NCBI GenBank assembly: GCA_017398945.1
Contig: JAFQES010000030.1
Span: 28,586 to 92,585 of the forward strand
Length of the DNA: 64,000 nucleotides
Origin: Bacilli bacterium
GTDB taxonomy: Bacteria > Bacillota_I > Bacilli_A > RF39 > UBA660
Direction of reading: 5' to 3'
Within the stretch, counting starts at the first letter, position 1. Every line of letters starts with the position of its first letter. Positions 5,211 to 62,946 of this stretch are shown in pieces. The notes beneath the pieces are model-generated. The model was not told the DNA's origin, did no database searches, and saw only the letters and a list, made by a program, of their open reading frames with translations. The translations under genes were made by a program, and so were the position numbers.

Positions 5211-5774
5211 ATGGAATTAATGGTAGGTGTTGGTGTTAGTAATCGTCATGTTCATTTAACTAAAGAAGTTTATGATGAGTTGTTCTTTGAAGAACCAACT
5301 ATTTTAAAAGAATTAACGCAACCAGATCAGTTTGCTTATAAAGAAACATTAAAAATAAAAACAGATAAAAATAGTATAGCTAATGTGAGAATATTGGGAC
5401 CTTTTAGAGAGTATAATCAAGTTGAAATATCTGCAACTGATGCTAGATTCTTAGGATTAAATCCACCTATACGAAAAAGTGGAGATTTAAAGGAAAGTGA
5501 AACGATTACTTTGGTAGGGCCTAAGGGAGAAGTAACTTTAGCTGAATCTTGTATCATAGCAAATCGTCATTTACATATAACTCCCGAAGAGGCAACAAAG
5601 TATAGCTTAAGTGATGATGAAGAAATTATATTAGTTTGTGATAATGTACAAGGGGGAACAATGAAAGCGTTTGTTAAAGTGATGCCAAACACTAAAACAG
5701 AAGTTCATTTGGACACAGATAATGCCAATGCTTTTGGAATTAAGCAAGGAGATATAATAAAGGTTATAAAATAA
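5211..5774 (+). CDS. pduL: Phosphate propanoyl/acetyl-transferase PduL-like
   Basis: Duplicated PduL signature (GVSNRHVHL ... ANRHLHITPEEA); about 187 aa. Confidence 0.7.
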   Translation: MELMVGVGVSNRHVHLTKEVYDELFFEEPTILKELTQPDQFAYKETLKIKTDKNSIANVRILGPFREYNQVEISATDARFLGLNPPIRKSGDLKESETITLVGPKGEVTLAESCIIANRHLHITPEEATKYSLSDDEEIILVCDNVQGGTMKAFVKVMPNTKTEVHLDTDNANAFGIKQGDIIKVIK

Positions 5775-5775
5775 A

Positions 5776-5820
5776 AAGTTTGTAAATTTCAGCTGCGTGC
5801 TTGTGTTTACAAACTTTTTT
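5776..5820 (+). terminator. Rho-independent terminator of the pduL-like gene
   Basis: aaagtttgtaaa ... tttacaaacttt stem followed by TTTTTT. Confidence 0.7.
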
Positions 5821-5830
5821 GTAGTATAAT
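5801..5830 (+). promoter_or_regulatory. Putative promoter of toxin-like peptide A (TTGTGT-18-TATAAT)
   Basis: TATAAT at 5825-5830 with a weak -35. It overlaps the 3' half of the upstream terminator. Confidence 0.35.
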
Positions 5831-5898
5831 ACCTTCACGGGAATATCAGTAGTTGGGTGTCTACCTCTAATCTTGTAAGAGAAAGGAGGTTTGATAAA

Positions 5899-5991
5899 AT
5901 GAATAAAAGAACTTTTATAATTAAAGTTCTTCATTCTTTCATTATCATTTTATTTCTTCTTATCATTATGATAGTGGTTATAAAAAAATGA
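5899..5991 (+). CDS. Type I toxin-like small hydrophobic peptide, copy A (30 aa: MNKRTFIIKVLHSFIIILFLLIIMIVVIKK)
   Basis: GAAAGGAGGT RBS 8 nt upstream. Single TM-like segment with a C-terminal KK. A paralogous peptide is encoded at 62718..62813 (-). The stop codon lies inside the convergent antisense RNA's terminator stem. Confidence 0.55.
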   Translation: MNKRTFIIKVLHSFIIILFLLIIMIVVIKK

Positions 5992-6100
5992 CACTTAATT
6001 TCATAATCAGAAATTAAATGTCTAACACATATAAAGTGGGTAGACATTCAACATTGCAAAACTGAATGTTCCCGTATTATTTTATGCAAGTTTTCTTGCT
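5980..6100 (-). ncRNA. Candidate antitoxin sRNA A, convergent and antisense to the toxin-A stop codon and 3' UTR
   Basis: Minus-strand promoter TTGCTA-17-TATAAT (plus coordinates 6107-6135). Terminator hairpin gacatttaatttc/gaaattaagtgtc followed by U7 (plus coordinates 5982-6022). Internal hairpins gcaag-N4-cttgc and gggaacattcag...ctgaatgtt..ccc. Conserved in copy B. Confidence 0.45.
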
Positions 6101-6106
6101 AAATAC

Positions 6107-6135
6107 ATTATATCATTTAATTTGATATTTAGCAA
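6107..6135 (-). promoter_or_regulatory. Sigma-A-type promoter for antitoxin sRNA A (TTGCTA-17-TATAAT)
   Basis: Reverse complement reads TTGCTAaatatcaaattaaatgaTATAAT. Confidence 0.45.
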
Positions 6136-6161
6136 GTTTAGGATAAATGAGGATTGAAAAT

Positions 6162-7148
6162 ATGAGTTTTAAAATTGGAAATATTGAAATTAAAAATCCA
6201 GTTGTTCTTGCTCCAATGGCTGGAATTTCTAATACTAGTTATCGGAAAATTATTAAAGAAATGGGAGCTGGACTTATCTATGCAGAAATGGTAAGCGATA
6301 AAGCCGTTTGTTTTGAAAATGAAAAGACTTTAAAAATGCTAGCAATGAGTGAAGAAGAAAGACCGATTGCTCAACAAATATTTGGTAGTGATATTGATTC
6401 TTTTACTAAAGCTGCTCAAATTATAGAAGAAAAAATGAAACCGGATATTATTGATATTAATATGGGGTGTCCGGTCCCAAAGGTAGCAGTTAAAAATCAA
6501 GCGGGTAGTGCTTTATTAAAAGATGTTAATAAGATAAAGGAAATAGTTGCGTCAGTTGTAAATGCTGTAAATGTTCCCGTTACAGTTAAAATTCGTAGTG
6601 GTTGGGATGAAAAAAATATTAATGCGGTAGAAGTAGCTAAAGCATGTGAAGAAGCAGGGGCAAGTGCTATAGCTATTCATGGAAGAACTCGTAGTCAGGG
6701 TTATAGTGGAAAAGCTAATTGGGATATTATTAAGCAAGTAAAAGACAATGTTAATATTCCCGTAATCGGTAATGGTGATGTTACTAGTGCTGAAGAATTT
6801 TTAAAAATGTTAAACTATACTAAATGTGATGCGGTGATGATTGGAAGAGGATGTATCGGTAATCCTTGGTTAATTAATGATTGTGTTAATGCTTATAACA
6901 ATCTATCTAAAAAAGAAGTTAGTATAGAAGAAAAAATAGACATGATGAAAAGACATTTAAATATGTTAATCGAAGATCAAAATGAAAAGGTGGCTATTTT
7001 AGAAATGAGAACTCATTTGATGTATTATTTTAAAACTTTACCGAATAATAAACCTTATAAAGTAGCGTTGTGTCAAGCTAAGACGAAAGAAGAAGTATTT
7101 AAAATACTTGATGAATATTTAGATGTATTTAAATATAATTTTGAATGA
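6162..7148 (+). CDS. dus: tRNA-dihydrouridine synthase
   Basis: VVLAPMAGISN...IDINMGCP...VTVKIR Dus motifs. The likely start is ATG 6162 (MSFKIGN) after GAGGA. The track start at 6147 lies inside the RBS. Confidence 0.85.
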   Translation: MSFKIGNIEIKNPVVLAPMAGISNTSYRKIIKEMGAGLIYAEMVSDKAVCFENEKTLKMLAMSEEERPIAQQIFGSDIDSFTKAAQIIEEKMKPDIIDINMGCPVPKVAVKNQAGSALLKDVNKIKEIVASVVNAVNVPVTVKIRSGWDEKNINAVEVAKACEEAGASAIAIHGRTRSQGYSGKANWDIIKQVKDNVNIPVIGNGDVTSAEEFLKMLNYTKCDAVMIGRGCIGNPWLINDCVNAYNNLSKKEVSIEEKIDMMKRHLNMLIEDQNEKVAILEMRTHLMYYFKTLPNNKPYKVALCQAKTKEEVFKILDEYLDVFKYNFE

Positions 7149-62512: not shown

Positions 62513-62521
62513 CTTTACATA

Positions 62522-62550
62522 TTGTAAAAATGTTAGTTCTATGATAATAT
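62522..62550 (+). promoter_or_regulatory. Sigma-A-type promoter for antitoxin sRNA B (TTGTAA-17-TAATAT)
   Basis: TTGTAAaaatgttagttctatgaTAATAT, positionally homologous to the copy-A antitoxin promoter. Confidence 0.4.
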
Positions 62551-62556
62551 TAGTAT

Positions 62557-62728
62557 GTAAGCAAGGAAACTTGCATAAAATAAAAAAGAGGAAACATTCA
62601 GTTTGGAAGTTGAATGTCTACCTCAAATAATATGGATAGACATTTAAGTCATAGTGATATGAACCTCATTTCCTTGTCCAAGAAATGGGGTTCATATCAA
62701 AGTCATGGACTTAAGTGTCATTTTTTTA
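62557..62728 (+). ncRNA. Candidate antitoxin sRNA B, convergent and antisense to the toxin-B stop codon and 3' UTR
   Basis: Hairpins gcaag-gaaac-cttgc and gagg..cattcag-tttggaag-ttgaatg..cctc. The terminator stem gacatttaagtc/gacttaagtgtc encloses an extra inserted hairpin (gatatgaacc...ggttcatatc) and is followed by T7. About 85% identical to the reverse complement of the copy-A element in its conserved blocks. Confidence 0.45.
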
Positions 62729-62813
62729 TTACAACTATTATCATTAATAGAAGGAATAAAATTATGGCTAGCAAAAATAATACTTTACAAACGTATTCAC
62801 GTTTTTTCACCAT
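62718..62813 (-). CDS. Type I toxin-like small hydrophobic peptide, copy B (31 aa: MVKKREYVCKVLFLLAIILFLLLMIIVVIKK)
   Basis: GGAAGGAGGT RBS. Paralog of the 5899..5991 peptide with a conserved KVL...IILFLL.IMIVVIKK core. The anti-SD ACCTCC in the 5' UTR can pair with the RBS. Confidence 0.55.
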   Translation of the reverse strand: MVKKREYVCKVLFLLAIILFLLLMIIVVIKK

Positions 62814-62876
62814 AGCACCTCCTTCCTAAAATAGAATGGAGGTAGACACTCAAACAACTGATTATTTCCTAAAACA

Positions 62877-62906
62877 ATTATACAATAAGTAAACTTATGA
62901 TATCAA
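62877..62906 (-). promoter_or_regulatory. Putative promoter of toxin-B mRNA (TTGATA-18-TATAAT)
   Basis: Reverse complement reads TTGATAtcataagtttacttattgTATAAT. Confidence 0.4.
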
Positions 62907-62916
62907 GGTAATTAAT

Positions 62917-62946
62917 AAAAAAATCATCAAAAATTGATGATTTTTA
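62917..62946. terminator. Bidirectional terminator downstream of rnj
   Basis: aaaaatcatcaa aaa ttgatgattttt. Confidence 0.65.

Follow-up and report, generated by a model that had tools for sequence, protein, structure and literature searches.

A probable new family of type I toxin-antitoxin modules in uncultured gut Bacilli, with two copies in a 64-kb region of an RF39-lineage genome

A stretch of 64,000 nucleotides from a Bacilli bacterium (Bacillota_I; Bacilli_A; RF39; UBA660; GenBank assembly GCA_017398945.1, contig JAFQES010000030.1, positions 28,586 to 92,585 of the forward strand), hereafter called the window, carries two copies of a small intergenic element that is probably a bona fide chromosomal type I toxin-antitoxin module belonging to a previously undescribed family. 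Copy A is a module of approximately 330 bases in the intergenic region 5775–6146, with the putative toxin gene on the plus strand; copy B is located at 62513–62943, with the toxin gene on the minus strand (window coordinates are used throughout). The open reading frame (ORF) of a short hydrophobic peptide, both promoters and both terminators are seen in silico, as are the RNA structures of the two strands and the way in which members of the family are distributed and decay. From these features we infer transcription, the toxicity and target of the peptide, and the route of its neutralisation. The existence of the two transcripts and of the peptide, judged from the sequences, is even more probable than the assignment to type I modules.

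In copy A, the candidate toxin promoter (5801..5830, plus strand) consists of a possible -35 box TTGTGT at 5801–5806, an 18-nt spacer and the -10 box TATAAT at 5825–5830, which had been recognised in the initial annotation of this DNA. Transcription is predicted to start at about position 5837, and the predicted mRNA of approximately 250 nt, with ends deduced from the promoter and the terminator, would occupy 5837..6085. The ORF encodes the 30-aa peptide MNKRTFIIKVLHSFIIILFLLIIMIVVIKK (5899..5991, ATG start codon, TGA stop codon at 5989–5991). On the minus strand, the promoter reported earlier was found at 6107..6135 (TTGCTA, a 17-nt spacer and (TG)TATAAT). The antisense (antitoxin) RNA of approximately 120 nt predicted from it (5981..6100) contains three hairpins, namely, SL1 (6099..6086), SL2 (6069..6044) and SL3 (6022..5990). 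The last of these, of 13 bp, forms the terminator (5981..6022) together with the following U7 run (AUUUUUUU), the complement of A5982–5988, and shares two bases with the toxin stop codon. The predicted transcripts thus overlap by approximately 105 bp (5981–6085) at the 3' end of the mRNA.

The window sequence alone does not give these signals statistical significance. Promoter matches in it are not above chance (7 observed, 10.4 ± 3.4 in shuffled sequences), since the window has only 25% G+C and shuffles yield such matches as often; terminator-like sites are mildly enriched (2 against 0.6 expected). Therefore, the case was made by comparison of copy A with copy B and with more than 120 related loci.

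The peptides of copies A and B are 57% identical; the non-coding blocks are approximately 80% identical, and several of them are identical in full. The toxin gene of copy B (62577..62882, minus strand) has the -10 box TATAAT at 62882..62877, the 5' arm of a long fold-back helix at 62870..62841, the ribosome-binding Shine-Dalgarno (SD) sequence at 62824..62818 and a predicted mRNA end at about 62577. Its ORF, MVKKREYVCKVLFLLAIILFLLLMIIVVIKK, extends over 62813..62718, or alternatively encodes 30 aa from GTG at 62810. The antisense gene (62522..62730, plus strand) has a -35 box TTGTAA at 62522–62527 and a -10 box TAATAT at 62545–62550, and its RNA would run from about 62557 to 62730. A covariance model, R1, built from the antisense RNA gives exactly two copies in the window, at 6112..5979 for copy A (116 bits, E = 8e-18) and at 62548–62730 for copy B (98.7 bits). 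Copy B lies between the 3' end of a putative RNase J gene, read as such from its sequence, and a convergent 141-aa ORF adjoining a cysteine-desulfurase-like gene.

For one of the blocks identical in both copies, the degenerate pattern GGTAGACAYTCARY-N4-14-YTGARTGT was used to screen genomes, each species being represented by one. At least 120 loci were detected in these species-representative genomes. Among the matches listed, nearly all belong to metagenome-assembled genomes (MAGs) labelled as uncultured Bacilli, Tenericutes, Firmicutes or Erysipelotrichaceae, and loci L003, L011 and L018 are chance matches. The MAGs of the family originate from rabbit, ruminant, chicken, mouse and human gut and include, for example, Ca. 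Ventrenecus and Firmicutes bacterium CAG:582. A scan of viral contigs with the pattern gave a single match, a chance one in L003. According to the search with the R1 model, which realised the covariance search with the conserved RNA blocks proposed in the initial annotation, there are at least 126 copies of the family in 100 sources, often in tandem, including divergent tandem copies missed by the pattern; four copies were found in L100 and three each in L004, L043, L044 and L103. The element family is present in more than 100 species of uncultured low-GC gut Bacilli.

The genomic context of the element is highly variable. For 127 elements, 116 different pairs of neighbour genes were found, and these neighbours are unrelated and occur in either orientation. 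At the site of copy A, between pduL and dus, 80 metagenomic relatives of dus were examined. No match to the antisense model was found with 77 of them, and the element was present at this site only in L124, the closest relative of dus (81% identity). In the other relatives, pduL and dus are separated by 1–139 nt or a different gene lies in between; the sites with a distance of 1–139 nt look like empty sites. This varying occupancy indicates that the module is gained at and lost from sites and does not represent a leader of dus. A BLASTN search with the intergenic region against plasmid and phage records gave no match, and these records thus offer no indication that plasmids or phages carry the module.

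Tandem arrays of two to four modules spaced by approximately 350–420 bp were noted in L100, L103, L004, L043, L044, L059, L014 and L102. Such arrays often combine subfamilies that differ in their fold-back arms and peptides. In addition, typical elements were observed in L030, L050, L073 and L076 on contigs of MAGs labelled as Muribaculaceae (Bacteroidota). These are probably mis-binned contigs of low-GC Bacilli, the alternative being horizontal transfer.

The 30-aa ORF described in the initial annotation is conserved in the family. In 98 loci, an ORF of 27–31 codons follows the ribosome-binding site AGAGGAGGTTTGATA(A)-ATG, and in the consensus of 91 elements the TTG of the -35 box and the TATAAT box of the toxin promoter are more than 90% conserved. 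The consensus peptide, MKTKTFIIKVLKLIAIILFLLIIMIVVIKK, has a basic N-terminus, approximately 20 hydrophobic residues that correspond to one helix of transmembrane length, and a C-terminal KK. The 69 distinct 30-codon ORFs (57 distinct peptides) were analysed for substitutions. Column entropies of 0.60, 0.42 and 0.81 were obtained for codon positions 1, 2 and 3, respectively, the second-position T of hydrophobic codons was nearly invariant, and the pooled pN/pS was 0.49. The substitution pattern is therefore of the coding type, as expected for a gene under selection. In the subfamily with the peptide MGKKDFLISSLIIIIILLIALLFIILK, the RNA scaffold is the same and the ORF stops approximately 20 nt short of the antisense terminator.

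Database searches gave no known family for these peptides. No family was found in Pfam or NCBIfam at E ≤ 10 for either window peptide, the PHROGs search gave nothing significant, and none of eight peptide variants was found in a collection of approximately 15 billion proteins. When the 44-aa GTG-extended ORF was used as the query, the only relatives in the databases were P0001 and P0002, ORFs of 63–68 aa that read in frame through the 5' untranslated region (UTR). They correspond to the 44-aa ORF that starts with GTG at position 5857 (5857–5991) and are gene-calling artefacts that mask the real 30-aa product. In the literature searched, the sequences of the peptide and the RNA led to no relevant paper, and no paper ties type I systems to RF39-type bacteria. 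The Rfam search at the gathering score over the full 64-kb window gave no match, hence no tRNA, rRNA or riboswitch, and at E ≤ 10 the best matches in the region 5600–6300 scored 19–22 bits against thresholds of 50–100. A known riboswitch or small RNA at copy A was consequently rejected, as neither strand has a credible match in Rfam; the conserved blocks could otherwise have turned out to be such an RNA. The proposal of a new toxin family thus holds with respect to Pfam, NCBIfam, PHROGs and Rfam.

As for the antisense strand, the 121-nt transcript of copy A (6100..5980) is predicted to fold into three hairpins (-31.6 kcal/mol, z = -4.6). Across the family, equivalents of the -35 and extended -10 boxes of its promoter are conserved, with constant spacing to the 5' hairpin, which often has a GAAA loop. 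In the alignment of 126 copies, 93.1% of cells are paired, compared with 27–40% in slid controls. Compensatory changes occur in 22 of 28 pairs (246 cells), and none of 500 shuffles reaches any of the five measures used. The direction of reading can be deduced from wobble pairs, because a hairpin in DNA is neutral with respect to strand and a G·U pair is not. Among 101 distinct versions of the stop-codon hairpin, 108 G·U pairs were counted when it was read as antisense and 9 when it was read as sense. The antisense form is the more stable one in 104 of 118 loci for this hairpin and in 115 of 118 for the middle hairpin. Read as sense, columns such as 74/88, with GU in 101 sequences, and 124/205, with UG in 55, would turn into A·C mismatches. 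Thus, at the level of sequence, the antisense strand has the properties of an RNA gene, and its hairpins and the terminator placed on the peptide stop codon in the initial annotation are conserved and covary. The invariance of ...IKK-stop in the peptide is explained by the same RNA, whose terminal U7 is the complement of the two Lys codons.

Folding of the toxin mRNA revealed a feature that the initial annotation did not contain, namely, a long fold-back of approximately 27 bp between the 5' and 3' ends. In both window mRNAs, the first ~27 nt pair with GGUAGACAUUCAAC...CUGAAUGUUCCC in the 3' UTR. The predicted folds have -72.1 kcal/mol (z = -7.6) for copy A, with paired 5' and 3' ends, and -90 kcal/mol (z = -7.8) for copy B, with the same 5'-3' helix and a CCUCC/GGAGG helix. 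The 5' arm of copy A (ACGGGAAUAUCAGUAGUUGGGUGUCUACC) is located at 5837..5865 and the 3' arm (GGUAGACAUUCAAC ... CUGAAUGUUCCCGU) at 6039..6075, 174 nt apart. The inner part of the 3' arm (6044–6069) doubles as a local hairpin, which precedes UCCCUUUUUUAUUUUAU; together with the U-rich run at 6070–6085, it is probably the terminator of the toxin mRNA itself.

Over 92 sequences, 91.1% of the fold-back helix is paired (98.7% of its inner half), compared with 32–49% for slid arms, and most cells that deviate from Watson-Crick pairing are G·U when read as sense. The search pattern froze most of the 3' arm, and the divergent copies found by the covariance model are therefore the better test. In these copies, differing 3' arms are matched by differing 5' arms: L044:360 has three double compensatory changes in addition to wobble-compatible single changes, and the arms of L007:2963 and L004:2640 are largely different in sequence yet complementary. 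In a 14 × 14 matrix of 5' against 3' arms, cognate duplexes have a mean energy of -34.3 kcal/mol and non-cognate duplexes -22.7 kcal/mol, with a block-diagonal arrangement by subfamily. Since sites approximately 200 nt apart covary on the sense strand and with sense-strand wobbles, it would be hard to reconcile these data with the absence or misfolding of such an mRNA.

It had been proposed that the motif CTACCTC in the 5' UTR sequesters the SD sequence. This motif is present on the plus strand at 5861–5867, one base away from the position given for it (5860–5866); all the other elements listed in the initial annotation are present as described there. The proposal of SD sequestration holds in substance. 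Folding of the 5' UTR, which had been recommended as a check, does produce an anti-SD/SD hairpin; in copy A, this local hairpin (5863..5890) is formed by ACCUCU at 5863–5868 and AGGAGGU at 5884–5890. For the nascent 5' UTR, pairing of the SD sequence with an upstream pyrimidine stretch is predicted throughout the family, the stretch being ACCUCU in copy A, CCUCC in copy B and, instead of CCUCC, UCUCU in many members. The CUACC part of the proposed anti-SD is, however, mainly engaged in the fold-back, where GUCUACC pairs with GGUAGAC in the 3' UTR. In the family, the SD sequence is predicted to be unpaired with a median probability of 0.008 (mean 0.097), compared with a mean of 0.43 when the upstream part is shuffled; this probability lies below that of the sequence's own shuffles in 84 of 91 sequences and equals 0.005 for copy A and 0.001 for copy B. 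When the 3' overlap was blocked in the folding, this probability changed from 0.125 to 0.08, and the pairing between the 5' UTR and the SD sequence from 0.58 to 0.81. The SD sequence is thus mostly paired in both states, so an SD switch triggered by the antisense RNA is not claimed. In addition, the 5' UTR is a near copy of the middle segment of the antisense RNA, and both target the same stretch of the 3' UTR.

The decay of the copies is asymmetric. Among 121 assessable antisense genes, 85 are accompanied by an intact ORF according to strict criteria and 36 are not; cases with the toxin kept and the antisense gene lost fall outside this count, as the search was anchored on the antisense side. 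In approximately one quarter of the copies, the ORF was lost and the antisense gene kept. With the antisense gene kept at full length, clear losses of the ORF include a change of ATG to ATA in L031, frameshifts in L017 and L117, and deletion of the SD sequence and start codon in L019. Elements truncated at the 5' end were found in L024, L047, L057, L099 and L123, and antisense-only remnants in L037:4973, L045, L051, L056 and L120. In L124 (2235–2500), at the same pduL-dus site as copy A, the toxin ORF is deleted and the antisense gene retained (82.7 bits). Loss of the toxin first and of the antitoxin later is what is predicted for a toxin-antitoxin system, and the observed asymmetry lends indirect support to a toxic action of the peptide.

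Taken together, the properties of the element correspond to those of type I modules. The ORF is small (below 60 aa), hydrophobic and has its own promoter and ribosome-binding site, and a separate antisense RNA, predicted from the sequence, would be complementary to the toxin mRNA over approximately 105 bp. The predicted mRNA has the SD/anti-SD helix, the 3' terminator and the 5'-3' long-distance pairing that T1TAdb uses as descriptors of type I toxin mRNAs (PMC8594479). Every prediction of the type I reading made in the initial annotation that can be checked at the level of sequence was borne out.

The following mode of action may be proposed. The plus-strand mRNA of approximately 250 nt would encode the 30-residue peptide, which may insert into the membrane and harm it; most type I toxins damage the membrane. 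During synthesis of the mRNA, the anti-SD in the 5' UTR would pair with the SD sequence and hold translation down in cis. After completion of the mRNA, its first ~27 nt would pair with the 3' UTR, giving a compact fold with both ends buried, and such an mRNA may be stable, long-lived and poorly translated. On the minus strand, the near-consensus promoter would produce the ~120-nt antitoxin RNA with its 5' hairpin, middle hairpin and intrinsic terminator on the toxin stop codon; this RNA would be fully complementary to the mRNA from its last codons through its 3' UTR. Pairing with the 3' part of the mRNA probably starts at loop contacts, and the duplex formed may undergo decay initiated by RNase III, by analogy with RatA/txpA and SR4/bsrG. 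The antisense RNA would have to compete with the 5' arm for one and the same 3' segment, and its binding should therefore free the 5' arm; in the predictions, this somewhat strengthens the anti-SD/SD pairing.

Some toxin promoters of the family contain sequences similar to LexA boxes. The palindrome GAAC-N4-GTT(C/T), resembling a LexA/Cheo box, overlaps the -35 or -10 box of the toxin promoter in 12 of 91 promoters, and GTTCGNTTG is present in 22 of 91. Examples are L013:5321-5572, L004:339-464, L062, L100 and L043; both window copies have no such motif. A strict search anchored on automatic -10 calls detected the box in 3 of 67 promoters, while shuffles of these 67 gave on average 0.2 promoters with GAAY-N4-GTTY. 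These motifs suggest that some members of the family have a toxin under SOS control; tisB, dinQ and symE are known SOS-controlled toxins. More tentatively, the whole may be viewed as a clade-wide multi-copy family in which the toxin mRNA bears in its 5' UTR a mimic of its own antitoxin and is self-locked, the antisense RNA displaces the 5' arm and so reinforces SD sequestration, and the subset with LexA boxes represents a DNA-damage-inducible toxin in a lineage of Gram-positive type. This extended model is possible rather than probable.

Several considerations weigh against the interpretation as a type I module. Both transcripts are predicted, in organisms that are uncultured. Because most of the 3' arm was specified by the pattern with which the loci were gathered, variation there is under-sampled in the fold-back test of 92 sequences, and it is about a dozen divergent copies that carry the covariation argument for this helix. 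The antisense alignment was fitted to the structure of the model itself, and some of the 36 cases without intact ORF are filter failures and not real losses. In the folding predictions there is no clean translational switch; the SD sequence appears paired with or without bound antisense RNA, which would leave toxin expression unexplained. Finally, a small conserved membrane peptide need not be a toxin. Purifying selection on the ORF and a peptide that is a simple transmembrane helix would also be expected of a conserved small membrane-protein gene with a cis-antisense regulator and a physiological role, e.g., as a subunit or modulator of a membrane complex, that is not an addiction module. Such a gene is an unlikely explanation, however: the module is always solitary, carries its own promoter and terminators and lacks a regular partner gene (116 different contexts for 127 elements), it is multi-copy, often tandem and lineage-specific at a given site, its ORF was repeatedly inactivated while the antisense gene persisted, and its mRNA is heavily self-silenced. 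Each of these features is characteristic of type I toxins but would be unusual in an accessory subunit.

The persistence of the antisense gene, the best-conserved part of the element, and the survival of antisense-only copies might alternatively mean that the antisense RNA is the main product, a small RNA acting in trans, and that the ORF transcript is secondary, for example, a sponge or by-product. This is improbable given the coding-type pattern of the ORF and its near-perfect ribosome-binding site in approximately 70–80% of copies, as well as the covariation of the sense mRNA's own long-distance structure; orphan antitoxins are, moreover, to be expected in a multi-copy toxin-antitoxin family. 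Still less probable is a miniature mobile repeat similar to miniature inverted-repeat transposable elements or repetitive extragenic palindromes, whose terminal inverted repeats would account for the complementary arms and in which the ORF would be incidental. The size (~330 bp), the multi-copy dispersal in intergenic regions and the co-change of the 27-nt inverted repeat arms between subfamilies agree with it, but on either side of the inverted repeat, conservation continues as far as the two promoters located outside it, and the G·U pairs occur on the sense strand in the long helix and on the antisense strand in the hairpins, which points to RNA-level selection for each strand. The ORF has a coding signature, and plasmid and phage records gave no match. 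The element was accordingly not assigned to these repeat classes, given the extension of the unit beyond the repeat ends and the selection on the ORF. The position directly upstream of dus and the high degree of structure could suggest a cis-regulatory leader of dus (riboswitch or attenuator), a reading with almost no remaining probability: copies of the element are found next to a variety of unrelated genes and in both orientations, copy B and its neighbour are convergent, the antisense model matched nothing in 77 of the 80 dus relatives examined, L124 being the only one with a copy between pduL and dus, and Rfam gave no match. The variable contexts and the survey of dus relatives effectively refute it.

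With respect to the surroundings of copy A, the location between pduL and dus given in the initial annotation is supported by two identical metagenome contigs, L001 and L002, on which Pfam families identify the flanking genes as a PduL/PTAC-family gene (5211–5774) and dus. According to these contigs, the true start of dus is the second ATG, at 6162, and not the start of the 333-aa ORF. The stop codon of pduL is closely followed by an inverted repeat (AAAAGTTTGTAAA ... TTTACAAACTTTTTT, 5778–5817), the probable terminator of that gene. The right arm of this repeat extends into the predicted -35 region of the toxin promoter. At the equivalent place of copy B (62915–62943), there is a terminator-like hairpin unrelated to this repeat. 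Another inverted repeat, of 11 nt (CTTGCTAAATA ... TATTTAGCAAG, 6095–6136), encloses the antisense promoter, and the family consensus for it is weaker (CTTGACA ... TGACAAG). This repeat may act as an operator or form a hairpin when sense transcription reads through, or it may reflect a chance match between the -35 box and SL1. In copy B, the loop of the antisense terminator holds an insertion of approximately 48 nt that is itself a strong hairpin (AACCCCATTTCTTGGACAAGGAAATGAGGTT, 62650–62705, read on the minus strand). The inserted 31-nt hairpin occurs once in the window, and a pattern for it had no match in the fetched family loci. By eye, a similar hairpin in the opposite orientation was seen in L009 and L101, abutting truncated elements.

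With very small toxins and antitoxins made of RNA, type I systems are difficult to detect. So far they are known only from Proteobacteria, Firmicutes and Tenericutes, a narrow range that has been put down to search bias (PMC12390103, 2025). The family described here is wholly unannotated despite its wide spread in gut Bacilli. It offers an unusually complete comparative set, with covariation on both strands, for the cooperation of a 3'-overlapping antisense RNA with a 5'-3' fold-back. The family may also serve as a marker of recent intergenic insertions in these genomes and is a candidate for a compact orthogonal RNA-controlled kill switch in model hosts.

Among known systems, txpA/RatA and bsrG/SR4 of Bacillus subtilis, as well as bsrE/SR5 and yonT/SR6, resemble the module in the convergent arrangement of toxin and antitoxin genes and in the small hydrophobic toxin. 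The architecture with a 3' overlap, for which txpA/ratA and bsrG/SR4 had been named as models in the initial annotation, was found here: the overlap of approximately 105 bp is within the 100–140 bp of complementarity in the B. subtilis type I systems, where RatA and SR4 pair with the 3' part of the txpA and bsrG mRNAs and the duplex is cut by RNase III (PMC6562991). As in bsrG, the SD sequence is located in a helix. In contrast to the B. subtilis systems, the peptide is shorter (30 aa) and the module lies in housekeeping intergenic regions, outside prophage. Neither the toxin nor the RNAs have sequence similarity to these systems (Pfam, NCBIfam and Rfam unmatched). A 5' UTR that resembles the antitoxin and shares the 3'-UTR target of the antisense RNA is not known from the B. 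subtilis systems.

The full-length mRNAs of hok/Sok and of aapA1/IsoA1 of Helicobacter pylori are likewise closed by 5'-3' pairing with a sequestered SD sequence, a combination regarded as a hallmark of type I toxin mRNAs in T1TAdb (PMC8594479). Their antisense RNAs target the 5' region of the toxin mRNA, whereas the one described here would pair with the 3' end, and the host clade differs. No match to Hok was found in Pfam and there is no mok-like leader ORF, the only upstream frame being the spurious GTG extension; with hok/Sok, the module has only the fold-back principle in common. The fst/RNAII system (par of pAD1) and the Fst/Ldr superfamily share with the module the Gram-positive hosts, the convergent transcripts and the terminators within the overlap, and the toxin of fst/RNAII is also of approximately 30 aa with one transmembrane helix. 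Unlike in fst/RNAII, the antisense RNA stops short of the start-codon region, and the tail of Fst is acidic or charged, while the peptide described here ends in KK. Pfam and NCBIfam include Fst-family models, and no model of either collection matched the peptide. SprA1 and SprG are further known toxin families of Gram-positive bacteria. Profiles of Pfam, NCBIfam and PHROGs gave no sequence membership in TxpA/RatA, BsrG/SR4 or other known Gram-positive toxin families, and Rfam at the gathering score gave none in known antitoxin or small-RNA families over the whole window. Judged from its sequences, the module would thus represent a new family within a known class and not a new principle, combining a 3' overlap like that of txpA/RatA and bsrG/SR4 with a fold-back like that of hok and aapA1.

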